Below are positions 50,293 to 64,000 of a DNA stretch of 64,000 nt, in pieces. This DNA is from Chloroflexota bacterium (GTDB taxonomy: Bacteria > Chloroflexota > Dehalococcoidia > E44-bin15), in assembly GCA_034189655.1 (NCBI GenBank), contig JAXHUE010000001.1, positions 58,022-122,021 of the forward strand. The letters are read 5' to 3'. Below the pieces are notes generated by a model that saw nothing but the letters and a program-made list of their open reading frames with translations, was not told where the DNA came from and made no database searches. The first letter of the stretch is position 1; every line of letters begins with the position of its first letter. Position numbers and translations under genes: made by a program.

Positions 50293-50311
50293 CTCTCCCC
50301 CTGTAGCCACC

Positions 50312-50341
50312 ATTGTACCGGGCCGGGGCAAGCGTGGTCAA
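50312..50341 (-). promoter_or_regulatory. ffh promoter TTGACC-N18-TACAAT
   Basis: Minus-strand read: TTGACC acgcttgccccggcccgg TACAAT, about 20 nt upstream of the ffh ATG. Confidence 0.5.
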
Positions 50342-50445
50342 GCGCGCTACCTGGAGGAGCCCTGGGAAGCGTGGGCGCAGTCAGTGGGGGGCTTGTTGGG
50401 GAAGGGCTGCACCCGCAGCGGCGTACGCGGCCTACTGATGCCTTT

Positions 50446-51705
50446 TTAGCGCGGGCCCCTGTGCACCCGTACCACCCCGTCTGCGGCCAGCCGCTCGATA
50501 TCGCCCTCGCTGTAGCCCAGCCCTTCGAGTATCTCCGCGGTGTGCTGTCCCAGGAGCGGTGGGGGCAGCACGGCACTCCCCGGCGTCCGCTTCAGCTTCA
50601 CCGGTATCCCCAGCATGTCGAGGTGGCCCCGGGTGGGGTGCTCCATGCCGACGAGCATCTCGTTGGCCTCCACCTGGGGGTGGTCGAACAGCTCCCGGTA
50701 GGTGAGGCAGGGGTCGCAGCGCAGCCGGTGCTCCTTGAAGAGCCGCTGCCACTCGGCCCTGGTCTTCTTGCTGAAGGCCTCGTCGAGTATGGCGTAGAGC
50801 TCCTCGGCGTGGGCAAAGCGCGCCCCATCGGTGGCGAAGCGGGGGTCTTTCTCGATGTGCTCCACGCCGAGCACGCGGCAGAAGACGGGCCACGAAGGGC
50901 CCACCCCCATCATGGCGAGCACATCGCCGTCCTGGGCAGGGAAGGGACAGAACACCGGGCTGCCTCGCCCCGCCCTGGTGCGCTGCACCCCATCTGCCAG
51001 GTACGTCGACATCTCCGTGGTCTGCAGTGTCATCACGGTATCGAGCTGGCTCACCGAGAGCTCCTGCCCCACCCCCGTCCTCTCGCGGGTGAACAGTGCC
51101 AGCATGATGCCGTAGGCGGTGAGGATGGCGCCGCCGTGGTCGATGAAGAGGAAGGGAACCATGGAGGGCGGGCCGTCGGGGGTCCCCATCTGGCTGATCA
51201 CCCCACCCATGGCCTGCGACCACATGTCCCCGCCGACGCGGTGGGCCAGCGGCCCCCGCTCTCCGAAGCCGTACACCGAGCAGTAGATGATAGCGGGGTT
51301 GAGCCCCGATATGACGTCGTAGCCCAGGCCCAGGCGCTCGATCACGCCGGGGCGGAAGTTCTGCAAGAAGACGTCGCTGCCCGCGGCCAGCTTCAGCACA
51401 ATCTCCCGGCCCTGCTCCGCCCTGATATCGATGGCCAGGCTGCGCTTGCTGCGGTTGTGCCCCAGCCACATGCCGGCATCCAGGGGCTCCTCCCGCTCCA
51501 CGTCTTCCCTGTACAGGTCGTCCATGGCCGCGGGCCGGCCTTGCCTGATGGCCTCTCCCTGCACCCGCTCCACCTTGATGACGTCGGCCCCCATGTCACC
51601 CAGCATCATGGCGGTGAGCGGGCCCATCATGGCCTGGGTGAGGTCTAATACCTTTATCCCCTCCAGCGGCAGGGCAGCCCGTTGCTCTCTCTCCATGCAG
51701 TTCAA
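50446..51705 (-). CDS. CoA transferase family III (CaiB/BaiF family)
   Basis: 419 aa. KVLDLTQAMMGPLTAMMLGDMGADVIKVE N-terminus. Fifth CaiB paralog in the window. Confidence 0.9.
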   Translation of the reverse strand: MNCMEREQRAALPLEGIKVLDLTQAMMGPLTAMMLGDMGADVIKVERVQGEAIRQGRPAAMDDLYREDVEREEPLDAGMWLGHNRSKRSLAIDIRAEQGREIVLKLAAGSDVFLQNFRPGVIERLGLGYDVISGLNPAIIYCSVYGFGERGPLAHRVGGDMWSQAMGGVISQMGTPDGPPSMVPFLFIDHGGAILTAYGIMLALFTRERTGVGQELSVSQLDTVMTLQTTEMSTYLADGVQRTRAGRGSPVFCPFPAQDGDVLAMMGVGPSWPVFCRVLGVEHIEKDPRFATDGARFAHAEELYAILDEAFSKKTRAEWQRLFKEHRLRCDPCLTYRELFDHPQVEANEMLVGMEHPTRGHLDMLGIPVKLKRTPGSAVLPPPLLGQHTAEILEGLGYSEGDIERLAADGVVRVHRGPR

Positions 51706-51808
51706 CCCCCTACGCTCTCACGAGTGGGGAGGTATGCCCCGGCATACCGGGCACGGCCCCGGGGTGGCACGGACGTTGAGACCGGCGCCGCCGGGCCTCC
51801 CCCAGCGG

Positions 51809-53122
51809 CTACGGCCAGTAGAGCTTCTGGGCCTCCCTCTTGAGGTCCGCGCGAAAGTCGGGGTGTGCCACGGCCATCATCTCGGCTGCCCGCTGTCGCT
51901 GGCTCTTGCCGCGGAGGCAGGCGATGCCGTGCTCGGTGATGATATAGTCGGCGAGGCTCCTGGGGACGGTGATCGCCGTTCCCTGCTCCAGCATGGCCAC
52001 GATGCGGGAGATGGTGCCCTCCTTCGCCGTGGAGGGGAGCAGCGTGACGGCGCGGCCGCCGCGGGAGAATGCGGCGCCTATGGCGAAGCTCAGCTGGCCG
52101 CCGGTGCCCCCCAGCATGCGCGGGCCGATGGACTCTGCGGTTATCTGCCCGGTGAGGTCTATGGTGAGGGCATTGTTGATGGCCACCATGTTGTCGTGAG
52201 AGGCAATGGTGCGGACATCGTTGACATAGTTCACGCTGTGCAGCTCGAACATGGGGTTCATCTGCACCCACTCCAGGTCCTGTCGGCTGCCGCCCACGGC
52301 GGTGGCGACGGCCTTGCCCCTGTTTATGGTCTTGTACCTCCCGGTGAACACCCCCTCGCGTATGAGCTCCACTATCTTGCCCGGGGTGTGCTCAGAGTGC
52401 CACCCCAGGTCGACCTTGCCATCGAATATGCCCAGTTGCGGGAGCGGCTCGGTGGTGGTGCCCACGCCTATCTCTATGGTATCGCCGTCCCGTAATAGCG
52501 TGGCCAGGTAGCCGGCTATGGCCTTCACCTCCTCGCGGGGCCCCGAGACCGCCTTCCCCCTTAAGTCGGCGCGGCCGGGCAGCTTCTCCGACGGGGTGTG
52601 CTCCACGAAGTAGTCTATCTCCGATACGTGCACATGGTTGGTACCGTAGGTCCTGATCAAGCGGCTGTTGACCTCGGCGAGCACCAGCGTGGCGGCGGTG
52701 ACCTGCTCCTTCTTGTTCCACACCGACTGGCCGAAGCTGCAGAACCCGTGCTCGTCCGGGGGCGACACCTCCACCAGCACCACGTCGATGTCGATGTCGG
52801 TGGCCTCGAGCCCGGTGAGGCCGCCGACGGCCATGTCGCACCTGCGCTCGGCCATCATCTCCCACACTATGGGCATGCCAAAGCCTATGGTTATCTCGAA
52901 GGACTCCTCCCATCCGCGGTCGTACCAGCCGAAGTCCCTGTCAGGGGTGGGCACCAGGACGCGTACCCCCTTGACTTCCCCCACCCTCGCCGCCAGGGCC
53001 AGCCCCAGGGCCTGCGTCTGCCTGCCGGCGGTGAAAAAGACACGGTCGCCAGACTTGACATGGCCCACCGCCTCTTCCGCCGATACCAGCTTCTTTTTAT
53101 AGTCGTCCTGCCAGTCGGTCAT
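51809..53122 (-). CDS. acetyl-CoA hydrolase/transferase family protein (4-hydroxybutyrate/succinyl-CoA:acetate CoA-transferase-like)
   Basis: 437 aa with typical two-domain AcetylCoA_hydro architecture (N-terminus SAEEAVGHVKSGDRVFF, conserved catalytic Glu region). Confidence 0.85.
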   Translation of the reverse strand: MTDWQDDYKKKLVSAEEAVGHVKSGDRVFFTAGRQTQALGLALAARVGEVKGVRVLVPTPDRDFGWYDRGWEESFEITIGFGMPIVWEMMAERRCDMAVGGLTGLEATDIDIDVVLVEVSPPDEHGFCSFGQSVWNKKEQVTAATLVLAEVNSRLIRTYGTNHVHVSEIDYFVEHTPSEKLPGRADLRGKAVSGPREEVKAIAGYLATLLRDGDTIEIGVGTTTEPLPQLGIFDGKVDLGWHSEHTPGKIVELIREGVFTGRYKTINRGKAVATAVGGSRQDLEWVQMNPMFELHSVNYVNDVRTIASHDNMVAINNALTIDLTGQITAESIGPRMLGGTGGQLSFAIGAAFSRGGRAVTLLPSTAKEGTISRIVAMLEQGTAITVPRSLADYIITEHGIACLRGKSQRQRAAEMMAVAHPDFRADLKREAQKLYWP

Positions 53123-53231
53123 GGTATGTTATCCCCTTTCATGATAACAATATGTCATCGCAGAGATTCTATCACCTGCCATTTCCTCGGTCAAGGCGAG
53201 CCCACCTGGCCGAGACGGCGGGCACCACCCC

Positions 53232-54809
53232 TCACCACTGCCTCCCCGCGGCGAGCACCCGCCTCCTCTCCTCCTCCTCCACCACGTCCCTTATCACCCT
53301 GGTGACCTCCCTGGCGCTCCGTATGGGCCTGGGCCTCACCCTGGTTCCGCTCCACCCGCCGGCGCCCCAGGCCGGGGCGATGACGTATACCGCTGTCCTC
53401 CCCCCTGCTATCTCGTCGAGCTTTGTGTGGGCCGCCTCTTCGAACTCCCCGTCGGAGACGAAGAGCAGGACGGGGTTGTAGCGGGCCTGGGCGCAGAACA
53501 CCTCTGCGGCCTCCAGCGCCGGGACGGGGTTGGTGGCCCCACCGCAGGCGTAGTCGCGGAAGGCCCTCTCGTGGGGCGCCTTCACCACGTGGCTCTCGCC
53601 GTCGAAGGCCACCGCCATGACCTCGTGTCCCGCCTTCTCCGCCGCCCAGGCCAGGGCGCTCCCCGCCCTCTTGCTTATCCCCGCCGGGTCCGAGGCGGAC
53701 ATAGACCCCGACTTGTCCAGGACGAGGGCGATGGAGAGCCTGGCCTCGTCGAGGCGGTCCTCCTCGAACCGTTTAAAGATGCGCGGGTCCCCGCTCCACG
53801 AGTACCTCATGGCCCCACGGGCATCCACCCTGCCGCCGGGGAGCCCCCTCTGGTAGCAGCTTCCGGTGGATGACCTCGCCCTGCTGAACACGTGGTAGAG
53901 CTGCCGCAGCAGGACGGGGTCGGGGCGCACCTCGCCCTCCGCGAGGCCGCACGCGCTGTAGCGGCCATACTGCCTCCCCTCCGCCGCGGCACCCACTGCC
54001 TCCTCCAGGTCCCTCTCCAGCCCCTCCGCGCCTATGGCCCCCTCCAGGTCGTCGTAGACCCTGGCGTCATCGCCCAGAGTGGACTCCTCGGCGAGCCCGG
54101 CCTCCCTCACCATGTCAGGGCTCCCGTACTCGGCGTCGCCCTGCCCGAAGCCGGCGATGGCCTCCCTGGCCCTGGCCCCCAGGGCGCTATCGGTGCCCGC
54201 CACCGGGTCGCGGTAGCGCCCCAGGCCCGTGATGTCGCCGGAGAGCTGGCGGGCCGTCGCGCCCAGCGCCACCAGGGAGGCGAACTCCCGTGCCAGCGCC
54301 TCCCGCTCGGCGAGGGCCCGGGACCGGATGAACTCGTCCCAGATATCGAGCGCCCGCCCCGGCACGCTGGGCCGCCGCAGCCTCACCGGGAGCAGGTGTC
54401 TCCTCCCCCACAGCAGCACCGGGTCGTTGAGACCCATCTTCACCAGGTTGTTGACGAAGTACTTGCGCGTGCCCGGGAAGACGGCGCTCATCAGCCACTC
54501 GATGCGGGCGTCCTCCAGGACGTCGAAGGCCTCTCGCTCGGCCCCGCGCAGGGAGAAGGTGTTATCGGTGAACATGATGTGGCCCAGGGCGTGGTAGTTC
54601 AACCCCTTCCAGACGGCACACCTCTCCCGCAGAGAGAGCCCCTCGCTGTTGGGGAAGGCGGCGCTCACGTGGATGTCCCTGCCATCGGTGGTGACAGGGG
54701 CGTCGGTGCCGAAGTGGCCGATGGCCACCTCGGTGCTCTGACCGGAGAGCGCCCGGTTGATGATGCGGCACACCGACTGAAGCCGCTCGATGGCCGCACT
54801 CTCGCTCAC
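53232..54809 (-). CDS. VWA-domain protein, CbbO/NorD-like partner of AAA ATPase
   Basis: C-terminal VWA with MIDAS motif (LVLDKSGSMSASD, VSDGE). GTG start at 54809 overlaps the stop of the upstream AAA gene (GTGA). The Arg/Gly/His-rich upstream extension in the track ORF was rejected. Confidence 0.75.
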   Translation of the reverse strand: MSESAAIERLQSVCRIINRALSGQSTEVAIGHFGTDAPVTTDGRDIHVSAAFPNSEGLSLRERCAVWKGLNYHALGHIMFTDNTFSLRGAEREAFDVLEDARIEWLMSAVFPGTRKYFVNNLVKMGLNDPVLLWGRRHLLPVRLRRPSVPGRALDIWDEFIRSRALAEREALAREFASLVALGATARQLSGDITGLGRYRDPVAGTDSALGARAREAIAGFGQGDAEYGSPDMVREAGLAEESTLGDDARVYDDLEGAIGAEGLERDLEEAVGAAAEGRQYGRYSACGLAEGEVRPDPVLLRQLYHVFSRARSSTGSCYQRGLPGGRVDARGAMRYSWSGDPRIFKRFEEDRLDEARLSIALVLDKSGSMSASDPAGISKRAGSALAWAAEKAGHEVMAVAFDGESHVVKAPHERAFRDYACGGATNPVPALEAAEVFCAQARYNPVLLFVSDGEFEEAAHTKLDEIAGGRTAVYVIAPAWGAGGWSGTRVRPRPIRSAREVTRVIRDVVEEEERRRVLAAGRQW

Positions 54810-55627
54810 AGGCCTATCGCCTCCATGATGTCGGCCACGGCCTCCCTGCCCAGGCCCTCGAACTTCTGGATGAGGATGCCCTTCGCCACCTCGCTGCCGA
54901 AGAGCTCGGCGTTTCTCATATACTGTATGAGGCTGCGGACCGAGCACACGCCCTCAAGCTCACCGGCCCCCATCGCCTGGTCGACCCTCTCCTTGAACTC
55001 GACGAGCTGGGGCGGGAACATCACCTTGACCGCGGGGTTCTCCTCGTCGTAGTCCAGCACCACGTTGAAACGGTCGAACAGCGCCCGGTTCAGGGGCCTG
55101 GTGCCCTCGTACTCCGGGTTCATGGTGGCACAGAAGACGAAGTCGGGGTGGGCGTATACCACCTCGCCGTCCTTCTGGGTGAGGGTCATCCTCCTCTCGT
55201 GGTCGGTGATGGAGTGGAACACGAAGTTCATCCCCGGCTTGGCCCCGTTCAGCTCATCGGCGACGAACACCCCGCCGTGCCTCATGAAGTGGGTGAGGAC
55301 GCCGTCCTGCCAGGAGAAGCCCCCCTCCACCGAGGGCACCCAGGAGCCGAAGAGATCCTCAGGGCTTATGGCATCATAGAGCTGTACCCTCACGTAGGGG
55401 AGGCCCAGCCGATAGGCGACCAGGCGCAGGACGTGGGACTTGCCGCTGCCGGTCTCGCCGATGAGCAGGATGTTCATGCGCTGGCACATCGCCTCCTCGA
55501 TGATGTCGATGTCCAGCCTGCCCCCGATCAGCCGCGGGTAGTACCTGGGAGGCTCCTCCCTCACCAGGTAGGGAGACCCACAGTGGTCGGTGAAGGACCG
55601 GCACCGCGCCGGTTCACTGTCGCCCAT
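54806..55627 (-). CDS. AAA+ ATPase, CbbQ/NorQ/MoxR (AAA_5) type
   Basis: Walker A GETGSGKSH, Walker B FVADELN, sensor 1 ATMNP. About 273 aa, typical of CbbQ/NorQ. ATG at 55627 after GGGGAGGGA. Confidence 0.8.
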   Translation of the reverse strand: MGDSEPARCRSFTDHCGSPYLVREEPPRYYPRLIGGRLDIDIIEEAMCQRMNILLIGETGSGKSHVLRLVAYRLGLPYVRVQLYDAISPEDLFGSWVPSVEGGFSWQDGVLTHFMRHGGVFVADELNGAKPGMNFVFHSITDHERRMTLTQKDGEVVYAHPDFVFCATMNPEYEGTRPLNRALFDRFNVVLDYDEENPAVKVMFPPQLVEFKERVDQAMGAGELEGVCSVRSLIQYMRNAELFGSEVAKGILIQKFEGLGREAVADIMEAIGL

Positions 55628-55689
55628 TCGCTCCCTCCCCAGTCCCGGCCACTCTAAAGAACGGCCGAGGTCGCCTTGCCCGCGGGGCC

Positions 55690-57156
55690 TCACCCCTCGA
55701 GCGGTATCTCAACGATTATTGCTGTCCCCCTGCCCGGCCCCGAGCGTATATCGAGTGTGCCACGGAGCAACTGGGCGCGCTCCTGCATGCCGACGAGCCC
55801 CAGCTTTCCCGCGTTGGACAGCTCGCCCAGGTGCGCCGGGATGTTGAAGCCCCTGCCGTCGTCGCTCACCGTCATGCGTACCTCTGCCGGGCCCGATTCC
55901 AGCCGTATCACCACCCGCGATGCCTCAGCGTGTTTCTTTATGTTAAACAGGGCCTCCTGTGCGATGCGGAACAGGGTGAGCTGGGCCTCACGGGAGAGCT
56001 CTTGCTCCGGCATATCGAGCTGGACGTCGGCCTTGATGCCGTCCTCCATGACCAGGTTATCGGCGAGCCACTCCAGCGCCGCCGCCAGCCCCATGTCGTC
56101 TAAGATGGCGGGGCGCAGCTCCTGGGCGTAGCGGCGCAGGCTGCCCAGCGTCTCAACGGCCAGGGCGTGGAGCTGTGAGAGCCTCTGCCGCACCTGCTCA
56201 GACAGCCTTATCTTGGGGTCGGAGACGATGGCGTCCAGCCGGTGCGTGAGCACGAGGAGCGACTGGCCGGCGTCATCGTGGAGGTCGCAGGCGATGCGCT
56301 TGCGCTCCTCTTCCTGTGCCACCAGGACTTTCTGCAGGTAGAAGCGCATGCTGTCCCGCATCTTTCGCTCCTCGGTGACGTCCCTGGCGATGTTGTGGAA
56401 GGCGACGGGCTCTTCGCCGTCCTCGATGAGGCGCGTCGTGAGCTCCACGATGGCCTCGGTGCCATCCCTGCGCAGCACCCGCTGGTCGTAGCGCTCCTCC
56501 ACCGGCTCGGACTTCATGAGCTTGCCCTTCACCCGCCGCGCCAGCTCGTGGGCGTCCTGGGAGAGGAGCTGGGTCACGTTCATGCCCAAGAGCTCCTCCT
56601 CGGAGTAGCCGGTCATGTGGGCGGCGGCCCTGTTGGCAGCGGTGATGGTGCCCCTCAAGTCGTGCACCCAGATGGCATCGCTCGCGTCCTGGAACAGCTT
56701 GCGGTAGTTCTCCTCCGAGCGGCGCATCTGCCCCAGCGCCGCCTCCTGCGTGGCCCGGTCCCGGAGCAGCCGGCGCCACATCCACAGCAGCGAGAGCAAG
56801 AGCACCCCTATGAGCAGGGCGGTGAAGGTCTCAACGAGGACATCGACAGGGGTCTCGGAGATGACGGCAGCCCGCACCACCATGGAGGTCGTGGCCAGTG
56901 CCAGGACGATGGCCCCGGCCCTCACCCCGAATATCCAGCCGGCGTAGGCCACGAGCAGGATGTAGAGCAGGCGGTCCTCGGTGTGGCGCTCCATCCCGAA
57001 GACCACGCTGGTGGATATGTGGCCCAGCACCGGCACGTGCTGCACGAGCTCATGGAAGTGGCTGATAGTGATGACGGCAAACAGCACCACGATGGCCCAG
57101 AAGTGGGGGCTCACCACTATGCGCCGTACTCTCGCTATGCCAGGTGATATATCCAT
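55690..57156 (-). CDS. sensor histidine kinase (membrane, PAS, HisKA_3/NarX-DegS type)
   Basis: N-terminal TM helices, PAS domain, H-box ACDLHDDAGQSL (HisKA_3), HATPase_c (GRGFNI, GLVGMQER). Confidence 0.85.
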   Translation of the reverse strand: MDISPGIARVRRIVVSPHFWAIVVLFAVITISHFHELVQHVPVLGHISTSVVFGMERHTEDRLLYILLVAYAGWIFGVRAGAIVLALATTSMVVRAAVISETPVDVLVETFTALLIGVLLLSLLWMWRRLLRDRATQEAALGQMRRSEENYRKLFQDASDAIWVHDLRGTITAANRAAAHMTGYSEEELLGMNVTQLLSQDAHELARRVKGKLMKSEPVEERYDQRVLRRDGTEAIVELTTRLIEDGEEPVAFHNIARDVTEERKMRDSMRFYLQKVLVAQEEERKRIACDLHDDAGQSLLVLTHRLDAIVSDPKIRLSEQVRQRLSQLHALAVETLGSLRRYAQELRPAILDDMGLAAALEWLADNLVMEDGIKADVQLDMPEQELSREAQLTLFRIAQEALFNIKKHAEASRVVIRLESGPAEVRMTVSDDGRGFNIPAHLGELSNAGKLGLVGMQERAQLLRGTLDIRSGPGRGTAIIVEIPLEG

Positions 57157-57213
57157 GTGACCTATACCGGCCCCCGCTGGCCCAGGCAGCCGCGTCGAAG
57201 GGCCTGGTCGTTA

Positions 57214-57900
57214 CTAATCAGTGCCGGACACGTCCTCCAGGGTGAGCCACCCCTCCCTCACCCCCTTGACAATGGCCTCCGTGCGCGAGGCTACGTCCAT
57301 GCGGTTGAAGATATTGGACAGGTGAGCCTTCACCGTGCGGACGCTGAGGCAGAGGTTCTCGGCTATCTCCTTGTTGCTCATGCCCTTGGCGGCGAGCTTT
57401 AAGACGTCCACCTCCCGCTCGCTCAAGGTATGCGCCGGCCGCAGCTCACCGTCTGGGTCCTGTCCCTGCACGCGGTACTTCAGTATCTTGGCGATTATGC
57501 TGGGGTGGAGCACCGACTCCCCGACGTACACCGTGCGTACCGCCTCCACCAAGTCCTGTCCCCGGGCGCTCTTGAGCATATAGCCGGCGGCCCCGGCCTC
57601 CAGCAGGCCGATGACGTAGCGGTCGTCGTCGTAGGCAGTGAGGATGAGCACGGCCGTCTGGGGGCTCACCTTCTTAATCTGGCTGATGGCGTCGATGCCG
57701 CTCAGCCTGGGCATCACGATATCCATGATCACGATGTCGGGCTTGAGCTCCGCGCTCAGCTTGACCGCCTCCTCCCCGTTCGCCGCCTCACCCAGCACCG
57801 TCATATCGCTGTGTTTCTCGAACGCAGTGCGCATCGCCTCCCGCAGCAGGGGGTGGTCATCTACGATCAAGATGCCTATCTTCTTGCTCGAAGACTTCAA
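57214..57900 (-). CDS. response regulator, NarL/LuxR family
   Basis: REC domain (ILIVDDH, DIVIMDIVMP, ILTAYD) and LuxR-type HTH (LSEREVDVLKLAAKGMSNKEIAENLCLSVRTVKAH). Confidence 0.9.
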   Translation of the reverse strand: MKSSSKKIGILIVDDHPLLREAMRTAFEKHSDMTVLGEAANGEEAVKLSAELKPDIVIMDIVMPRLSGIDAISQIKKVSPQTAVLILTAYDDDRYVIGLLEAGAAGYMLKSARGQDLVEAVRTVYVGESVLHPSIIAKILKYRVQGQDPDGELRPAHTLSEREVDVLKLAAKGMSNKEIAENLCLSVRTVKAHLSNIFNRMDVASRTEAIVKGVREGWLTLEDVSGTD

Positions 57901-58170
57901 ATGCTCTCCTCGCCGGGCACAGGCGCCCCTCCCAGTCTCCCCGTCGATTGTACCTCATTAGTGCCTGTGGCGGCAACCAAAGCCCCCGTCCACACCGTAA
58001 AACACCGGTACAGGCACCCGCCAAAGTATACCTCTCGCAGTGCGGAAGGACACACCGCCCACGCCCCCGCGGCCCAGCGCTGGCCGCCCACTAGTACCTA
58101 GGTACAATGGTGAAGTGCCCTATCGGCCATGGCAAAAATAGGGCCAAGGTTCAATGTATTATACATAACA

Positions 58171-58188
58171 TTGTGATACCATTCACAC
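58171..58188. promoter_or_regulatory. TTGTGAt-ACCA-TTCACAc palindrome (perfect TGTGA-N6-TCACA core), candidate Rex/CRP-family operator
   Basis: Seen directly in an unusually AT-rich stretch 30-45 nt upstream of the first ORF of the NuoE/NuoF/FdhA operon. 12/14 match to the Rex consensus TTGTGAA-N4-TTCACAA. Confidence 0.5.
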
Positions 58189-58201
58189 GGAGACACAGAA
58201 A

Positions 58202-58522
58202 ATGAGGGGGAAAAGGATGGGTTCGTTGACCAACACCAGCGCGAGAGACCCGGCACACACAACAGGGCCGGCCATTGTCCAGGCCCCCCAGGGAAAGGAG
58301 GCAGTGCTCGAGGTGCTGAAAAGGGCTGCAGAGGAGAACGAGTTCATGGCCCGGCTGGCCGATGACCCCAATGAGGCCCTCCACGAGTACTACACGCTCA
58401 CCATGGAGGAGAAGGCCGCCCTCGCCAGCGGCGACATCAAGAAGATCGAGAGCTGGGTGGGCAAGCTCGACAGGCAGCTCGCAACCTGGCTCTGGCACCG
58501 CTTAAGCCAGGAAAAGTGGTAA
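58202..58522 (+). CDS. small protein of unknown function sharing a conserved ~50-aa module with the FdhA C-terminal extension
   Basis: ORF with RBS (GGAGA, or GAGGGGG for the alternative ATG at 58217). Its C-terminal two thirds align at about 55% identity with FdhA residues encoded at 63830..64000 (shared ...EEKAALASGDI[KR][KR]IESW.G...). Confidence 0.6.
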   Translation: MRGKRMGSLTNTSARDPAHTTGPAIVQAPQGKEAVLEVLKRAAEENEFMARLADDPNEALHEYYTLTMEEKAALASGDIKKIESWVGKLDRQLATWLWHRLSQEKW

Positions 58523-58538
58523 AGAGGAGTATATCGAC

Positions 58539-59075
58539 ATGGCAGATACCCGTGTAGCGCCGGATTTACGTGTGCCTTCATCACCACACGATGCCGCGAT
58601 GGAGCAGCAGGTAGACCTTATCCTCTCCTCTTTCCACGGCAGCGAGAGCGAGCTCATCCCCATACTCCAGCACGTCCAGCAGGCCTTCGGCTACGTGCCT
58701 GAGCTGGCGATCAAGCGCATAGCCAGGTTCCTCCACATCCCAGAGGTCACCATCTTCGGGGTGGTGACGTTCTACGCCCAGTTCAAGCTCACCCCCTCGG
58801 GGAGGCGGACCGTCAAGGTGTGCCGCGGCACCGCCTGCCACGTGCGCGGCGGCAAGAGGATCCTGGAAGAGTTCGAGAAGTGCCTGGGCATCAAGCCCGG
58901 CGAGTCGACCCCCGACCTGGAATACGGCCTTGAGACCGTGGCCTGCATCGGGGCCTGCGCCCTGTCGCCGGCCATCGTGCTCGACGACAAGGTGCACGCC
59001 CGGATGACCCCGCAGAAGGTAAACGACATCCTGGGCACGGGCAACGGTTCCGACACCACATCGGCCAGATCATGA
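58539..59075 (+). CDS. NuoE-like [2Fe-2S] thioredoxin-fold subunit (NADH dehydrogenase 24 kDa / HoxE / FdhC-like)
   Basis: Conserved Cys ligands (CRGTAC...C...CIGAC) and the SILPILQHVQ-type motif (LIPILQHVQQAFGYVP). Confidence 0.85.
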   Translation: MADTRVAPDLRVPSSPHDAAMEQQVDLILSSFHGSESELIPILQHVQQAFGYVPELAIKRIARFLHIPEVTIFGVVTFYAQFKLTPSGRRTVKVCRGTACHVRGGKRILEEFEKCLGIKPGESTPDLEYGLETVACIGACALSPAIVLDDKVHARMTPQKVNDILGTGNGSDTTSARS

Positions 59076-61030
59076 GGCACCCTAAAGCAAACATGGAGAG
59101 AGAAATGGATTTCGACGAGATCAAGGACCAGGCACTGTCCAGGTGGGAGGCCATGCAGCACAGCGAGCGGCCGCGCATCATGCTGGGGATGGGGACCTGT
59201 GGCATCGCCGCGGGCGCCGACGACATCGTCCCAGCCCTCAAGGAGGGCCTGGAGAGGACGGGCACCGCCGCCGATATCATCGAGGTGGGCTGCATCGGCC
59301 TGTGCTACGCCGAGCCCCTCATCGAGGTGGCGAAGCCGGGCCGTCCCAGCATATTCTACGGCTACCTCACCCCCGCCCTAGCCTCCGAGATCGTGAGTGA
59401 CTACCTGGCGGGCGACGACCCGCGGCCCGACCTGGCACTGGGCACCCGCGGCGAGGGGACCATCGAGGGCATACCCAGGCTCTTCGACCTGCCGGTGCTG
59501 AAACCACAGGTCCGCATCTCCCTGCGCAACTGCGGGAACATCGACCCTGAGAATATCGACCACTACATCGCCAACGGCGGCTACCAGGGCCTGGCCAAGG
59601 CGCTGGCCATGACCCCGCAGGAGGTCATCGACGAGGTGAAGAAGTCGGGGCTGCGCGGTCGCGGCGGCGCCGGCTTCCCCGCCGGGAACAAGTGGCAGTT
59701 CTGCCACGACGCCCCGGGCGATATCAAGTACATCATCTGCAACGCCGACGAGGGCGACCCGGGGGCATTCATGGACCGCGCCCTCCTGGAGGGAGACCCC
59801 CACGCCGTGCTGGAGGGGATGCTCATCGGGGCCTATGCCATCGGGGCCACCGACGGCTATATCTACATCCGCGCCGAGTACCCCTTGGCCATCCAGAGGC
59901 TCAAGGTAGCCATCGCGCAGATGGAGGAGTACGGGCTCCTCGGCGACGATATCATGGGCTCTGGGTTCAGCTTCCACATAAAGCTGAAGGAGGGGGCCGG
60001 GGCCTTCGTCTGCGGCGAGGAGACGGCGCTCATGGCCTCCATCGAGGGCAGCCGGGGCATGCCCCGCTCACGGCCCCCCTTCCCCGCCCAGTCCGGACTG
60101 TGGGGGCGGCCCACCAACATCAACAACGTGGAGACCTGGGGCAACGTCTCCGCCATCCTGGAGCGGGGCGCCGACTGGTACGCCAGCTACGGCACGGAGA
60201 AGAGCAAGGGCACCAAGAACTTCTCCCTCGCCGGCAAGGTGAACCGCACCGGCTTAATCGAGGTGCCCATGGGCATCACGCTCAGGCAGATCGTGTACGA
60301 GATCGGCGGGGGCGTCCCCGACGATAAGAGGCTCAAGGCGGTGCAGACCGGGGGCCCGTCGGGAGGCTTCATCCCGGCAGACCTCATAGACCTCCCCGTC
60401 GACTACGAGTCCCTGGGGCAGGCGGGCTCCATCATGGGCTCCGGGGGCATGGTGGTGATCGACGAGGACACCTGCATGGTGGACATGTGCCGCTTCTTCC
60501 TCTCCTTCACCCAGGCCGAGTCCTGCGGCAAGTGCATCCCCTGTCGCTGGGGCACCAAGCAGATGCTGGACATACTGGAGGACATCACCAACGGCAGGGG
60601 CAGGCCCGGCGACATCGAGCTGCTCGCTGAGCTCGCCGAATCGGTGAAGGACAGCTCCCTGTGCGGCCTGGGGCAGACGGCGCCCAACCCCGTGCTCACC
60701 ACCATCCGCTACTTCCGCGACGAGCTGGAGGCCCATATCTACGAGCAGCGCTGCCCGGCGCTGTACTGCACCGAGCTCATCACCTACTACATCGTGCCCG
60801 AGCGGTGCCAGGGCTGCTGCATTTGCCTGAGGAAGTGCCCCGCCGAGGCCATCGTCGGGGGCAAGAGACAGGTGCACGTCATCGACCAGGCGCTGTGCAC
60901 CAAGTGCGGCACCTGCATGGACGTGTGCCCCACGCGCTTCGACGCCGTGGTCAAGCTCTCCGGCGCGGAGGCGGCCGCGCTCACCCAGCCGGTGCCCGCA
61001 GTGGCAACGGGGGCGGGGGTAACCGAGTGA
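59072..61030 (+). CDS. NuoF-like NAD(H)-binding FMN/[4Fe-4S] subunit with N-terminal [2Fe-2S] domain and C-terminal 2x[4Fe-4S] ferredoxin domain (HndC/HydB type)
   Basis: GRGGAGFPAG NADH site, FMN motif, SLCGLGQ 4Fe-4S site, the N-terminal thioredoxin-like CGIAAG...CIGLC, and C-terminal CQGCCICLRKCP / CTKCGTCMDVCP. ATGA overlap with the nuoE-like gene. Confidence 0.9.
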   Translation: MRHPKANMEREMDFDEIKDQALSRWEAMQHSERPRIMLGMGTCGIAAGADDIVPALKEGLERTGTAADIIEVGCIGLCYAEPLIEVAKPGRPSIFYGYLTPALASEIVSDYLAGDDPRPDLALGTRGEGTIEGIPRLFDLPVLKPQVRISLRNCGNIDPENIDHYIANGGYQGLAKALAMTPQEVIDEVKKSGLRGRGGAGFPAGNKWQFCHDAPGDIKYIICNADEGDPGAFMDRALLEGDPHAVLEGMLIGAYAIGATDGYIYIRAEYPLAIQRLKVAIAQMEEYGLLGDDIMGSGFSFHIKLKEGAGAFVCGEETALMASIEGSRGMPRSRPPFPAQSGLWGRPTNINNVETWGNVSAILERGADWYASYGTEKSKGTKNFSLAGKVNRTGLIEVPMGITLRQIVYEIGGGVPDDKRLKAVQTGGPSGGFIPADLIDLPVDYESLGQAGSIMGSGGMVVIDEDTCMVDMCRFFLSFTQAESCGKCIPCRWGTKQMLDILEDITNGRGRPGDIELLAELAESVKDSSLCGLGQTAPNPVLTTIRYFRDELEAHIYEQRCPALYCTELITYYIVPERCQGCCICLRKCPAEAIVGGKRQVHVIDQALCTKCGTCMDVCPTRFDAVVKLSGAEAAALTQPVPAVATGAGVTE

Positions 61031-61094
61031 GCACAGAGCTAAAGAACCGCAGAACGAGCACAACAGATAGTAGCGATATATATGGAGGGTCTCG

Positions 61095-64000
61095 ATGAGC
61101 CCTGTTACTGGGACGATCGATGAGAAGAAGGTGGACACCATCACCCTCACCATAAACGGAGAGAGGGTGGAGGTCACCAAGGGGGCAACCGTCCTCCAGG
61201 CCGCCCTGGGGGCCGGCATCTATATACCCACGCTGTGCTACCAGCCCGACTTGAAGCCCTACGGGGCGTGCCGGCTGTGCATCGTGGAGATCGAGGGGAT
61301 GCGCGGCCTGGTGAGCTCCTGCACCACGCCGGCAACGCAGGGCATGGTGGTGCACACCGAGACACCGCGGGTGAACCGCGCGCGCCGCACCACCATGGGA
61401 CTCATCATCGCCAACCACCACGGCGACTGCTTAACCTGCACCAAGAACCAGGACTGTGAGCTGCTCAAGATCGCACAGTACCTGGGCATGGAGCAGGACA
61501 GCATCGACCGCATGCGCAAGGACACCAGGGTGCTCCCCATCGACCGCAGCCACCCTGCGTTCGAGCGCGACTTGAACAAGTGCATCCTGTGCGGCAACTG
61601 CGTGCGCGCCTGCCACGAGATCGCGGGCGTGGGCGCCATCGGGCTCGCCTTCAGGGGGTACGAGGCCAAGGTGGCCACCGCCGGCGACAGGCCCATGCTC
61701 GAGTCCATCTGCCGCTCCTGCGGCGAGTGCGTCGCCCGCTGCCCCACCGGGGCCCTCGTGCCCAAGATGGAGCGGGTGCCCACCAGGGAGGTCACCACCA
61801 TCTGCCCCTACTGCGGCGTGGGCTGCTCCATCAGCCTGGGCATTAGGGACAACAAGATAGTCTCGGTGAAGGGCGACCCCCAGGGCCCCACCAACAAGGG
61901 CAGCCTGTGCGTCAAGGGGCGCTGGGGCTACGACTTCGTCTCCCACCCAGAGCGCCTGACCACCCCGCTCATCAGGGTGGAGGGCATCTCCAGGGGGGCG
62001 CCTCACAACGGCCGCGTGCACGATATCTTCCGCGAGGCCACGTGGGACGAGGCCCTGGACTATGTGTCCAACAGGCTCATGGAGATACGGCAGATCTACG
62101 GCCCGGACAGCCTGGCCGGCTTGAGCTCGGCCAAGTGCACCAACGAGGACAACTACGTCATGCAGCGCTTCGTCCGCGCCGTGCTGGGCACCAACAACGT
62201 CGACCACTGCGCCCGGCTGTGCCACGCCTCCACCGTGGCCGGGGCCATAGCCTCCTTCGGCCAGGGGGCGATGAGCAACTCCTACGACGACCTGGAGCGG
62301 ACGGGCCTCTTCTTCATCATCGGCTCCAACACCACGGAGTGCCACCCCATCATCGGGGCCATCGTCAAGAGGCGGGTGAAGTTCGATGGCGCCCGCCTCG
62401 TCGTCGCCGACCCCCGCTCTATCGAGCTCGCGGACTACGCCGACGTCCACCTGGCACAGAGGCCGGGCACCGACGTCGCCCTGCTGAACGGGCTCATGCA
62501 CGTCATCATCAGGGAAGGGCTGGAGGACAGGGAGTTCATCGAGCAGCGCACCGAGGGCTACGAGGAGATGCGCCAGCTCGTAGAGAAATATACACCGGAG
62601 GCGGTCTCCGAGATAACGGGCGTCCCCGCGGCCGACATCGAGGCCGCCGCCCGCCTGCTGGGCGAGGCCGGGAGCGCCTGCGTGCTCTACGGCATGGGCA
62701 TCACCCAGCACACCACGGGCACCGACAACGTGAAGAGCATCGCCAACCTGCTCATGCTCACCGGCAACATCGGCCGCGAGGGCACCGGGTTCAGCCCGCT
62801 CCGCGGGCAGAACAACGTGCAGGGGGCGTGCGATGTGGGGGCACTGCCCAACGTCTACCCCGGCTACCAGCGGGTCGACGACCCGGCGGTGAGGGAGAAG
62901 TTCGAGGCGGCATGGGGATGCACCTTGAGCGACCGCCCCGGGCTCACCGTCACCGAGATCGCCGATGCCGTGTACGGCGGGGGCATCAAGGGGCTCTACG
63001 TTCTGGGCGAGAACCCGCTCATGAGTGAGCCCAACCTCGAGCACACCAGGGCGGCATTCGAGCAGCTTGAGTTCCTGGTGGTGCAGGACATCTTCCTCTC
63101 CGAGACCGCCTGGCTCGCCGACGTCGTGCTCCCCGCGGCCGCCTTCGCCGAGAAGGACGGCACCTTCACCAACACCGAGAGGCGGGTGCAGCTCGTCCGG
63201 CAGGCGCTTGTGCCGCCGGGAGAGGCCAAGGCCGACTGGCAGATAATCGCCGACCTCGCGGCACACATGGGCGTGCCCTTCGGCTACCCCGACAGCGCCC
63301 AGGTCATGGAGGAGATCGCCGCTCTCGCCCCCATCTACGGCGGCATACGATACCAGCGCCTGGAGGGAGGGGGCCTGCAGTGGCCCTGCCCCGACACCTC
63401 CCACCCGGGGACGCCGTTCCTGCACAGAGACGGCTTCGCCAGGGGGCGGGGCAAGTTCCACGCCATCGAGTACATCCCACCGGCGGAGTCTATATCGACC
63501 AGCTACCCCCTCATCCTCACCACGGGGAGGATACTGGAGCACTGGCACACCGGCACCATGAGCCGGCGCGCCCGGGTGCTCTCCGAGCTCAAGCCCCACG
63601 GCTCCGTGGAGATGCACCCCACGGACGCATCACACCTGGGGCTCATGGAGAACGACGTGGTGGTGCTGGCCTCGGAGCGAGGGCGGCTGGAGACCATGGT
63701 CCACATCACCGAGAAGTCGCCGCCGGGGGTGGTATTCATGCCCTTCCACTGGCACGAGTCGCCAGTGAACCTGCTCACTAACAACGCCCTCGACCCGGTC
63801 GCCAAGATACCGGAGTTCAAGGTCTCGGCAGTGAGCGCCGTGCTCGCGGTGCTGGACCGGGCGGCACGGGACAACACCTTCCTCGCCCAGCTCGCGGAGA
63901 ACCCCGCCGAGGCACTCAAGGACTACCCGCTCACCGCCGAGGAGAAGGCGGCGCTGGCCAGCGGCGACATCCGCCGCATAGAGTCCTGGCTGGGCAGGCT
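61095..64000 (+). CDS. fdhA: formate dehydrogenase alpha subunit (molybdopterin, Cys-type), NuoG-like N-terminal Fe-S domains, C-terminal extension; 3' end beyond window
   Basis: N-terminal 2Fe-2S and 4Fe-4S motifs, molybdopterin oxidoreductase domains, active-site region RLCHASTVAG with Cys (codon 62220..62222) at the Sec/Cys position. The ORF is open to the window end and carries an extra C-terminal module after the usual KIPEFKV end. Confidence 0.9.
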   Translation, partial: MSPVTGTIDEKKVDTITLTINGERVEVTKGATVLQAALGAGIYIPTLCYQPDLKPYGACRLCIVEIEGMRGLVSSCTTPATQGMVVHTETPRVNRARRTTMGLIIANHHGDCLTCTKNQDCELLKIAQYLGMEQDSIDRMRKDTRVLPIDRSHPAFERDLNKCILCGNCVRACHEIAGVGAIGLAFRGYEAKVATAGDRPMLESICRSCGECVARCPTGALVPKMERVPTREVTTICPYCGVGCSISLGIRDNKIVSVKGDPQGPTNKGSLCVKGRWGYDFVSHPERLTTPLIRVEGISRGAPHNGRVHDIFREATWDEALDYVSNRLMEIRQIYGPDSLAGLSSAKCTNEDNYVMQRFVRAVLGTNNVDHCARLCHASTVAGAIASFGQGAMSNSYDDLERTGLFFIIGSNTTECHPIIGAIVKRRVKFDGARLVVADPRSIELADYADVHLAQRPGTDVALLNGLMHVIIREGLEDREFIEQRTEGYEEMRQLVEKYTPEAVSEITGVPAADIEAAARLLGEAGSACVLYGMGITQHTTGTDNVKSIANLLMLTGNIGREGTGFSPLRGQNNVQGACDVGALPNVYPGYQRVDDPAVREKFEAAWGCTLSDRPGLTVTEIADAVYGGGIKGLYVLGENPLMSEPNLEHTRAAFEQLEFLVVQDIFLSETAWLADVVLPAAAFAEKDGTFTNTERRVQLVRQALVPPGEAKADWQIIADLAAHMGVPFGYPDSAQVMEEIAALAPIYGGIRYQRLEGGGLQWPCPDTSHPGTPFLHRDGFARGRGKFHAIEYIPPAESISTSYPLILTTGRILEHWHTGTMSRRARVLSELKPHGSVEMHPTDASHLGLMENDVVVLASERGRLETMVHITEKSPPGVVFMPFHWHESPVNLLTNNALDPVAKIPEFKVSAVSAVLAVLDRAARDNTFLAQLAENPAEALKDYPLTAEEKAALASGDIRRIESWLGR

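Follow-up and report, generated by a model that had tools for sequence, protein, structure and literature searches.

A formate dehydrogenase operon and its divergent two-component system

The stretch of DNA analysed here (the window, 64,000 nucleotides from a Chloroflexota bacterium) ends within an operon encoding a NAD-linked, NuoEF-type metal-dependent formate dehydrogenase. Pfam searches and the identical genes of a near-identical ENA contig, L001, demonstrated that NuoE-like, NuoF-like and FdhA subunits are all present (Table 1). L001, whose FdhA differs by one amino acid, also supplies the sequence past 64000, where the sequence-only reading had seen FdhA break off. The full protein has 986 amino acids and ends at the window-equivalent position 64055; the last 18 residues of its tail, LDDRLRAWLALRLSQEKW, lie beyond the window. 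The active-site motif of FdhA is HCARLCHAST, with Cys at the Sec/Cys position, where relatives carry Sec.

The operon opens with a small ORF. Its longest form spans 58202..58522, and the public gene call starts from the ATG at 58217, behind GAGGGGGAAAAGG, with GAGGGGG as ribosome binding site. We denote the product m; an identical protein is found in an NCBI Chloroflexota MAG (SV910_00565). A gap of 16 nt separates m from nuoE, which has its own ribosome binding site.

Table 1. Features at the m-nuoE-nuoF-fdhA locus, in window coordinates
Feature	Position	Strand	Basis
PAS / HisKA_3 / HATPase histidine kinase, membrane-anchored, divergent from the formate operon	55690..57156	-	ORF; Pfam domains (identical gene, L001)
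NarL/GerE-type response regulator, divergent from the small ORF	57214..57900	-	ORF; L001 annotation
Divergent regulatory region between response regulator and m	57901..58216	.	sequence
Free module protein m, 101 aa: variable 26-aa N-terminal tail and 75-aa module	58217..58522	+	ORF, public gene call
Module within m, free-type (Y32 and W67 present)	58295..58519	+	
NuoE-like 2Fe-2S subunit	58539..59075	+	PF01257
NuoF-like NAD(H)/FMN subunit, C-terminal ferredoxin domains	59072..61030	+	PF01512, PF10589, Fer4 families
FdhA, NuoG-like N-terminus and molybdopterin catalytic part, cut by the window	61095..64000	+	ORF; L001
Fused module, FdhA C-terminus, fused-type (Y32 deleted, W67 replaced)	63837..64000 (start about)	+	NF038399; L001 tail

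The region between the response regulator gene and m contains a palindrome, GTACCTAGGTAC (58094..58105), an inverted repeat, CCCTAT/ATAGGG (58118..58143), and an AT-rich palindrome, ATGTATTATACAT (58154..58166). A sigma-70 pattern scan detected no plus-strand promoter before the small ORF, and an Rfam search of 57000..64000 detected no RNA family. Among 61 related intergenic regions between response regulator and m, GTAC-N4-GTAC occurs in 9 (0.2 in shuffles) and the box G[GA][ACT]CGATG in 50 (1.7 in shuffles); the window carries GGTTCAATG, a variant of the CGATG box. Of the 90 free m genes that were classified, 75 have a divergent response regulator at most 5 kb away, in 60 cases at most 1 kb away; six others are at a locus edge and nine show none. 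In the majority of related loci, a homologous kinase is encoded upstream of free m. Membrane helices are present in the window kinase, together with only a cytoplasmic PAS domain. Presumably, the m-headed operons are controlled by this divergent PAS-HisKA_3/NarL system.

Two paralogue classes of one helical module

The sequence-only reading held that the small ORF and the FdhA tail share a conserved block, and BLASTP confirms it (E 8e-23). Its count of 26 of 48 identical residues was too low: the last 73 residues of m match the FdhA tail at 48 positions (36 of 55 in the part visible in the window), with one 1-residue gap (EYY vs -Y). Both copies reach the stop codon, ending RLSQEKW. In FdhA the module begins 5-6 residues past IPEFKV, the last FdhA strand, and is indeed an addition to the canonical enzyme, as had been proposed.

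At the nucleotide level the two copies are 68% identical, the longest identical run being 15 nt, and 19 of the 48 identical residues are encoded by different codons. Comparison of 66 operons showed that a free copy is as close to the fused copy of its own operon (0.633 identity) as to the fused copies of other genomes (0.632); the likeness of m and tail therefore does not stem from recent duplication. On the strength of these three observations we rejected recent duplication or gene conversion, and the earlier view that conservation is at the protein level is borne out. The dN/dS values of free copies (0.07) and FdhA tails (0.12) indicate strongly purifying selection; the value of 0.49 for the tails of FNT formate channels (see below) is unreliable because indels disrupt the fixed 40-codon frame used. 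Judged by sequence, the module of m and the FdhA tail are true paralogues, conserved as proteins.

Free and fused copies differ at defined positions of the module. All free copies (100%) have Y32 and all tails of both kinds, FdhA and FNT, lack it through a deletion (100%), and W67, found in 94% of free copies, is replaced in the tails. The class-specific positions lie in the loops that join helices 1 and 2 (E14 to D) and helices 3 and 4 (Y32) and in helix 6 (W67), and FNT tails have further ones in helices 1, 4 and 5, indicating that free and fused copies are separate, old paralogue classes. Several polar residues are invariant or nearly so, namely R10 (in free and FdhA copies), Y33, D47, R69, Q72, E73 and K74. 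The C-terminal heptapeptide (RLSQEKW in the window) is extremely conserved and stands exactly at the stop codon in 151 of 162 copies.

The module had been described as vaguely NHLP/Nif11-like and as belonging to no recognised family; the former agrees with our searches and the latter is superseded. The window-truncated FdhA tail scores 45.3 bits with NCBIfam NF038399, above the cutoff of 40, and the small ORF scores 39.7 bits (E 3.9e-10), 0.3 under it. A homologue search with the small ORF returned 982 homologues, and the close ones are named 'Os1348 family NHLP clan protein' by NCBI. Scores with Pfam LigA PF07746 (12.4 bits vs a cutoff of 25.3, FdhA tail only) and TIGR04509 (16.6 vs 34 bits) stay below the thresholds. 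The best PDB sequence match of the module profile, a weak one, is Os1348 (6LK7); a single-sequence search of PDB sequences with the module gave nothing relevant. An AF2 model predicts six helices in a LigA-like fold, in agreement with the published ECOD classification of PF14407 (PMC12353581). The module is thus assigned, from profile and model, to the known LigA-like/NHLP superfamily as a 75-residue helical domain of the Os1348 family.

This family, together with the conserved heptapeptide at the stop codon, could suggest a RiPP precursor, in which the helical part is the leader and RLSQEKW the core peptide, as proposed for Os1348 and NHLP/Nif11. We consider this highly improbable and rejected it on anatomy and neighbours. 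The genes around the module encode the kinase, the regulator, NuoE, NuoF, FdhA or FNT, and housekeeping functions, and neither the window operon nor the annotated related loci contain YcaO, radical SAM, LanM, SagB, GNAT, peptidase or exporter genes. The module is without a Gly-Gly cleavage motif and without a Cys/Ser/Thr-rich core, and the same 'core' is carried by an enzyme of 986 aa and a membrane channel of 416 aa. None of the outcomes that would have refuted the sequence-only reading was encountered; one of them was a known domain with an established, unrelated role, and the RiPP-precursor role of this family is itself only putative, with its defining neighbours absent here.

Free-plus-fused pairs beside formate genes in relatives

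The sequences compared all derive from metagenomes. In 81 loci, almost all of them in Dehalococcoidia MAGs, the free copy heads operons divergent from a PAS-HisKA_3/NarL two-component system. The pair recurs in orthologous formate dehydrogenase operons, which the sequence-only reading had named as a check: all 22 complete FdhA proteins of m-nuoE-nuoF-fdhA operons carry the C-terminal module, and in the same loci the tail is absent from all eight paralogous nuoEF-fdhA operons that have no m. In addition, 47 FNT formate channel genes located directly after m carry the module at the C-terminus.

Rarer architectures, REC~m, m~NuoE and FeS~m~m, are also found beside formate genes. Natural m~NuoE fusions, in which the conserved C-terminal end of the module becomes internal, occur on five contigs (P0208 on four, and P0220). 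REC~m and REC-REC~m proteins are encoded next to FNT or FDH and to additional kinases. A single 915-bp contig supports the HTH~m~m architecture (P0121, L087), since a search for homologues of P0121 yielded nothing beyond P0121 and one FNT~m. Two contigs, L086 (REC~m) and L087, are too short for their surroundings to be read; where these are readable, the module is beside formate genes in every architecture but one. Other arrangements include a free m that stands alone by the two-component system and is not directly followed by a fused partner (L022, L029), operons with two free copies (L021-type) and REC~m beside an FNT without a tail (L093). The FNT pairs, the recurrent link to a divergent two-component system and the REC, NuoE and Fe-S fusions all extend beyond what the sequence-only reading could see. 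A literature search found no paper connecting this domain with FDH or FNT. The free-plus-fused pair, which in related uncultured Chloroflexota also marks formate channels, suggests that formate metabolism has an accessory or regulatory component not yet described.

The neighbouring two-component system raises the possibility that the module ties formate enzymes and channels to that system, with m or REC~m binding the tails or the kinase and thereby reporting or controlling flux. DctA/DcuS, in which a transporter serves as co-sensor for a sensor kinase, would provide an analogy, and partner-switch or titration feedback would be alternatives. We regard this scheme as tentative and rather unlikely. 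It would account for the NarL-type regulator, usually accompanied by a kinase, near most free m genes, for the solitary m of L022 and L029, for receiver-domain fusions adjoining FNT or FDH genes and further kinases, for the existence of HTH~m~m and for a membrane-anchored kinase with only a cytoplasmic PAS domain. However, the first place in an operon behind a regulated promoter requires no special reason, the fusions of m to NuoE and the shortness of the FdhA linker appear structural rather than regulatory, and HTH~m~m is known from that lone contig. The scheme is compatible with, and not exclusive of, the reading we prefer below.

The same neighbourhood of formate genes, together with the many nearly invariant polar residues, would also fit a small-ligand sensor: the module would bind formate or a similar anion and thereby tune, by allostery, the protein to which it is attached, free m being a buffer or carrier. 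This appears distinctly improbable: LigA-like members are not described as ligand sensors in PMC12353581, PMC7726476 and PMC3962378, REC~m would have two inputs and no output, and in a 75-residue helical bundle in which nearly every position is conserved, conservation gives no usable pocket signal.

A candidate accessory of formate-handling proteins

The explanation we prefer, at roughly even probability, is that a compact interaction module with six predicted helices has been recruited in uncultured Dehalococcoidia as a dedicated accessory of formate-handling proteins and that free m pairs with the fused copy. The sequences show paralogy, family and fold, the C-terminal position of the fused copy, strict co-occurrence, and association with formate genes and the two-component system; the physical pairing and its functional consequence we infer. 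Free m, as the first product of operons beside the divergent PAS-HisKA_3/NarL system, and the second, distinct paralogue class at the C-terminus of a key formate protein (FdhA here, FNT elsewhere) would form an asymmetric heterodimer, comparable to the Os1348 homodimer, and m would thereby serve both FDH and the formate channel as an extra subunit, accessory or regulatory. In FdhA it would be placed on the C-terminal cap domain, the site that the unrelated FdsD takes in NAD-dependent FDH, and in FNT on the side of the pentamer that faces the cytoplasm; there it may stabilise or gate these proteins; the receiver-domain versions would obtain a regulatory handle on them.

The linker between IPEFKV and the module, only 5-6 residues long, forces the module onto the cap domain of FdhA; in the FDH of R. 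capsulatus, the FdsD subunit binds the cap-domain region (PMC7171172). The natural m~NuoE fusions suggest that m is in the same complex. The co-occurrence of free and fused copies, their separation into old classes, the purifying selection and the 16-nt gap between m and nuoE are in favour as well. Os1348 is a stable crystallographic homodimer formed via helices 1, 4, 5 and 6 (PMC7726476); of these, helix 6, and in FNT tails also helices 1, 4 and 5, contain class-specific positions of the present module. LigA and its counterpart in DesB, described below, are further precedents for protein binding. The docking or dimerisation role suggested by the sequence-only reading is thus the best supported one, although we reach it by inference only. 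We counted against pairing the AF2 model of the natural tandem m~m segment (P0121), in which the domains are well folded (pLDDT about 88) with no confident pairing (pTM 0.46; the alignment spanned only one repeat), as well as the loci where free m has no immediate fused partner (L022, L029) or is present in two free copies (L021-type).

The REC~m beside a tail-less FNT in L093 indicates that the module may bind something other than another module. Each copy may instead dock on the catalytic or channel body, free and fused copies occupying different sites. LigA caps LigB as a free subunit, and the corresponding part of DesB is a C-terminal domain that works in trans within a swapped dimer and caps the neighbouring subunit (PMC3962378), the same logic of a free subunit turned into a fused one; L093 and the m~NuoE fusions, where the conserved C-terminal end is internal, would also agree with such a lid. 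Yet FdhA and FNT have unrelated folds and their tails share the deletion of Y32 and the loss of W67, derived features for which one common partner is easier than two docking surfaces, and the strict pairing of free and fused copies in the same operon likewise favours a common partner. We therefore consider docking on the bodies quite unlikely. A bolder reading would make the module a homotypic 'formate tag' that docks FNT, NuoEF-FdhA, free adaptors and receiver regulators into a membrane-associated, phosphorylation-controlled formate metabolon, in which tail-to-tail or m-bridged contacts would channel formate between pore and enzyme; this we hold to be doubtful.

LigA-like/NHLP domains have been viewed for the most part as handles of RiPP leaders or as subunits of dioxygenases. 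The present clade is linked instead to primary metabolism, being found on an enzyme that makes or consumes formate, on a channel that moves it and on response-regulator receiver domains, in abundant, uncultured Dehalococcoidia of subsurface and sediment, in which formate and Wood-Ljungdahl metabolism are central. If the copies pair, NuoEF-type formate dehydrogenases would have in m a new accessory subunit, analogous to FdsD in position, and FNT would have a dedicated cytoplasmic partner domain, for which we know of no example outside PflB-FocA. For annotation, an 'Os1348 family NHLP clan protein' beside FDH or FNT genes should not be taken as a natural-product precursor. The free-plus-fused pair is small, well defined and testable.

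Among known systems, the NHLP, Nif11 and borosin (SonA) RiPP leaders belong to the same clan, share the LigA-like core and are handles that bind a partner enzyme. In these the domain is N-terminal to a cleavable core, with maturation enzymes alongside, whereas here it stands at the extreme C-terminus, without maturation genes. Os1348 of Pseudomonas sp. Os17 (PDB 6LK7), the founder of NF038399, is a small protein of six helices, the number that is also predicted for the module, and its stable homodimer is a precedent for pairing. It is a Gac-regulated, antibiotic-related putative precursor beside GNAT, peptidase and SagB-type genes (PMC7726476), which the window operon lacks; no enzyme or channel fusions are reported for it, whereas the present module is fused to FdhA and FNT, and an invariant C-terminus, RLxQEKW, is peculiar to the Dehalococcoidia clade.

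FdsD, the delta subunit of the NAD-dependent FdsABGD, is a helical accessory, as the module would be, with a length of about 70 aa, and belongs to a cytoplasmic FDH of the NuoEF type. Its binding site is near the C-terminus of FdsA and the cap domain, by the entry of the hydrophilic substrate tunnel (PMC7171172), the region that the FdhA-fused module must occupy. Homology of the two, in sequence or in fold, was rejected on the Pfam search, the fold classification and PMC7171172. The LigA subunit of protocatechuate 4,5-dioxygenase and the C-terminal domain of DesB share the LigA-like helical fold; their partner is a LigB-type extradiol dioxygenase, of which there is none in the window operon or the related loci. 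In LigA and DesB the free and fused forms replace one another, whereas here both are encoded in one operon.

Two copies of an Os1348-family module in the formate dehydrogenase operon

A search of public assemblies for a protein identical to the window's NuoF-like one supplied the missing end of FdhA from a near-identical ENA contig (L001). The full protein has 986 aa, and its tail continues for 18 residues past position 64000 to a stop codon. FdhA of L001 and of the window differ by one residue (V/M at GACD[V/M]GALP), and NuoF is identical. In a comparison of window positions 49072..64000 with L001, the operon is nearly identical; upstream of it a fixed-offset alignment falls out of register, indicating that the assemblies differ there by at least one indel.

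The sequence-only reading had noticed a block of about 50 aa common to the small ORF that heads the operon and the FdhA tail. The alignment of the complete proteins confirms the similarity up to both stop codons (...AALASGDIKKIESWVGKLDRQLATWLWHRLSQEKW in the small ORF, ...AALASGDIRRIESWLGRLDDRLRAWLALRLSQEKW in the tail; BLASTP E 8e-23), with 48 identical residues and a single one-residue gap in a 73-residue core. Conservation at the protein level, also proposed there, is borne out: the DNA is 68% identical with a longest identical run of 15 nt, and 19 of the 48 identical residues use different codons.

Features of the window operon and its upstream region
Feature	Position	Detail
Divergent two-component system	55690..57900	Same arrangement as in relatives
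Palindrome GTAC-N4-GTAC, lineage-specific	58094..58105	9/61 regulator-module intergenic regions
Palindrome GCCC-N3-5-GGGC, lineage-specific (related loci)		11/61 regulator-module intergenic regions
AT-rich palindrome ATGTATTATACAT	58154..58166	Stands out in GC-rich window
Small ORF, longest frame	58202..58522	ORF scan
Small ORF, public gene call (near-identical contig)	ATG 58217	101 aa, behind GAGGGGG ribosome-binding site
FdhA	61095, runs off window end	ORF scan
FdhA Cys codon, active-site Sec/Cys position	62220..62222	HCARLCHAST

The sequence-only reading could not assign the module to a family; a profile-HMM search of both segments places it in NCBIfam NF038399, the 'Os1348 family NHLP clan protein' family. 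Against a cutoff of 40 bits, the FdhA tail as cut by the window scores 45.3 bits and the small ORF 39.7 bits; close homologues of the small ORF already bear this family name at NCBI. Pfam PF14407 (Frankia_peptide) matches weakly and PF07746 (LigA) faintly. A reading as RiPP precursor fails on module anatomy and neighbour genes. Os1348 of Pseudomonas sp. Os17, the family founder, has 85 aa in six helices and crystallizes as a stable homodimer with an interface from helices 1, 4, 5 and 6 (PMC7726476). Its structure, 6LK7, is the best PDB sequence match of the module profile (weak, E 0.04) and the best Foldseek match. The values listed for known folds were 9.1 for the C-terminal LigA-like domain of DesB (gallate dioxygenase), 8.5 for LigA, 6.1 for the leader domain of SonA (borosin precursor) and 4.3 for Os1348. 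A reclassification in ECOD places LigA, PF14407 and Nif11, together with the alpha chain of nitrile hydratase, in a single 'LigA-like domain' group (PMC12353581). The Foldseek result agrees with this grouping, and the module is shown to be a LigA-like/Os1348-family domain. Whereas LigA occurs as a free subunit, DesB carries the equivalent part at its C-terminus, from where it completes the adjacent subunit's active site in a swapped dimer (PMC3962378). The fold is thus already known in both forms, each binding a protein partner. On a rival reading, the module may be a LigA-style lid on its host protein.

Free and fused copies in related operons

Homologue detection for the small protein gave 982 sequences. 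The best 120 are all of 90-160 aa and from Chloroflexota/Dehalococcoidia metagenomes, with a near-invariant 75-residue C-terminal module after a variable 20-60-residue tail. Two homologues of the free type carry JGI names, 'EutS microcompartment shell protein' (P0041) and 'PrlF antitoxin' (P0061), that look like spurious automatic annotations. A locus scan limited to a single genome for each species gave 79 loci, nearly all from Dehalococcoidia MAGs, onto which the window proteins were mapped. Among the 162 module-bearing ORFs, 91 are free and 2 more are free copies with over-extended ORFs; in 47 the module closes an FNT-family formate/nitrite transporter (PF01226, about 410 aa), and in 22 it closes FdhA. 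It runs up to the stop codon in 151 of these ORFs, with the motif R-L-x-Q-E-K-W; its place at the extreme C-terminus is shown. One typical kinase-regulator-m-FNT~m locus (L039, JABXJW010000153.1) is binned as Desulfobacterales, either by binning error or through transfer; the others are essentially all Chloroflexota/Dehalococcoidia.

Writing m for the free module gene and ~ for a fusion, two operon types recur: type A, that of the window (m - nuoE - nuoF - fdhA~m), and type B (m - FNT~m). The standalone-plus-fusion pair is therefore present in related operons: all 22 complete FdhA of type-A operons carry the tail, which is found on 0/8 paralogous nuoE-nuoF-fdhA operons without a leading m in the same loci, and large FdhA-GltD-type fusions nearby are likewise without it. 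The FdhA tail tracks the presence of the free copy, and free and fused classes were shown to co-occur strictly in formate operons adjoining a two-component system. Some loci (L022, L029 and L021-type operons) have m without a fused partner directly downstream.

Many loci hold one of two further kinds of formate dehydrogenase gene just past the two-component system (about 2300..7600 in L011, L019, L037, L044, L052, L061 and L078; about 3400..7600 in L015, L028, L030, L036, L041 and L083). These are either a second nuoE-nuoF-fdhA operon without free m or tail, or a protein of about 1366 aa in which FdhA is fused with a GltD-like pyridine-nucleotide oxidoreductase, indicating that the genomes hold several formate dehydrogenase types with the module on one type only. 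A long operon in L021 (5610..11482), also seen in L007, L017, L033, L038, L008 and L055, reads m - cNMP-binding protein - acetyl-CoA synthetase - 191-aa membrane protein - m - FNT~m. The membrane protein, assigned by eye, is a putative SatP/GPR1-type acetate channel, and the cluster combines two free copies with acetate and formate uptake genes. The NuoF-like gene, of 652 aa in the window, reaches about 1000 aa in type-A loci L006, L023, L029, L036, L058, L063, L076 and L080; since tblastn matches end at query residue 570, the longer proteins appear to carry an additional domain in place of, or beyond, the C-terminal ferredoxin part. The FdhA ORF is split at the Sec/Cys position in L057, L065, L073, L076 and L071 (in the last beside its frameshifts), the in-frame stop being verified in L057 alone (13903..13905, HCARL*HSPTVAG), and these FdhA are probably selenocysteine enzymes.

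Mean identity is 72-75% among free copies, 83% among FdhA tails and 63% among FNT tails, and about 64% and 51% between free copies and FdhA or FNT tails, respectively. A free copy is no closer to the tail of its own operon (0.633) than to those of other genomes (0.632), and identity comparison did not separate type-A from type-B free copies. Every free copy (100%) has Y32, in the helix 3-4 loop, and every tail of either type (100%) has it deleted; W67, in helix 6, occurs in 94% of free copies and is I/L/T in tails. Further class-specific positions lie in the helix 1-2 loop (E14 to D) and, where FNT tails are concerned, also in helices 1, 4 and 5. By these comparisons, the free and the fused copies form separate classes of old origin. 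The dN/dS values (0.07 for free copies, 0.12 for FdhA tails) point to strong purifying selection on both.

The two-component system and other architectures

A divergent NarL-type response regulator lies less than 1 kb from 60 of the 90 classified free m genes, in most cases accompanied by a PAS-HisKA_3 kinase; for a further 15 the distance is up to 5 kb, 6 are at the locus edge and for 9 none was seen. The regulatory region between regulator and module (window 57901..58216; 61 loci) is conserved in sequence. The box G[GA][ACT]CGATG occurs in 50 of the 61 intergenic regions (1.7 in shuffles), 110-180 nt before the module, and the box and the palindromes GTAC-N4-GTAC and GCCC-N3-5-GGGC are likely operators of the NarL-type regulator. 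On a rival reading, the module may connect formate enzymes and channels to this two-component system.

Searched with a module profile, 1.84 billion cluster representatives gave only 331 matches, indicating a narrow family. Apart from free copies and partial FdhA~m and FNT~m sequences, these include other fusions, among them receiver-domain proteins (REC~m, REC-REC~m). On a JGI 3300042731 contig, REC~m lies directly upstream of a 456-aa REC-FNT fusion, which also follows REC-REC and Pyr_redox-REC proteins; this formate channel appears wired directly into a phosphorelay. Another REC-module protein directly follows a tail-less FNT, ahead of genes for a GAF-PAS kinase and a sigma-54 regulator; a third is beside a hybrid kinase and an FdnGHI-type formate dehydrogenase, and the 1.3-kb contig of P0167 (L086) is too short for neighbours to be seen. 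Fusions m~NuoE were found on 4 contigs from different samples (P0208) and with NuoF next (P0220), which suggest that m belongs to the formate dehydrogenase complex. An Fe-S protein~m~m adjoins an FdhA gene, and HTH~m~m is on a single short contig. Where surroundings are readable, formate genes stand beside every architecture except HTH~m~m.

Proposed role and comparison with known systems

The domain superfamily, HMM family and family name are already known; a link of the module to formate metabolism was in no paper within reach of our literature searches. This link comprises the C-terminal fusions to FdhA and FNT, the free paralogue heading the operons, the association with a two-component system and the REC, NuoE and Fe-S fusions. 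All module sequences come from uncultured organisms. The module pair is conserved, specific and experimentally tractable, and we infer its mechanism as follows. The free m would pair with the fused copy as an accessory subunit. FNT channels are pentamers, and the linker of about 50 residues between FNT and module would give each pentamer five cytoplasmic modules. The REC versions suggest that the module handle is reused for phosphorylation-dependent control.

AF2 prediction of a natural tandem module pair gave well-folded domains whose mutual orientation was without confidence (pTM 0.46). Because of this result, the loci with partnerless m and the REC~m beside a tail-less FNT, we retain three alternatives to pairing: the connector and the lid, both compatible with pairing, and a module that may itself be a formate sensor.

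For pairing of free and fused copies, the Os1348 dimer offers a comparison, as its interface helices 1, 4, 5 and 6 include helix 6, which carries W67, and the class-specific helices 1, 4 and 5 of FNT tails. In FdhA, only 5-6 residues link the last canonical strand (...IPEFKV) to the module, so that the C-terminal cap domain must be its seat. FdsD (71 aa) of R. capsulatus FdsABGD binds at the cap domain, which it locks over bis-MGD, and lies close to where the hydrophilic substrate tunnel opens (PMC7171172). Although FdsD is unrelated to the module, its binding place is the same cap domain on which the FdhA-fused module must sit.
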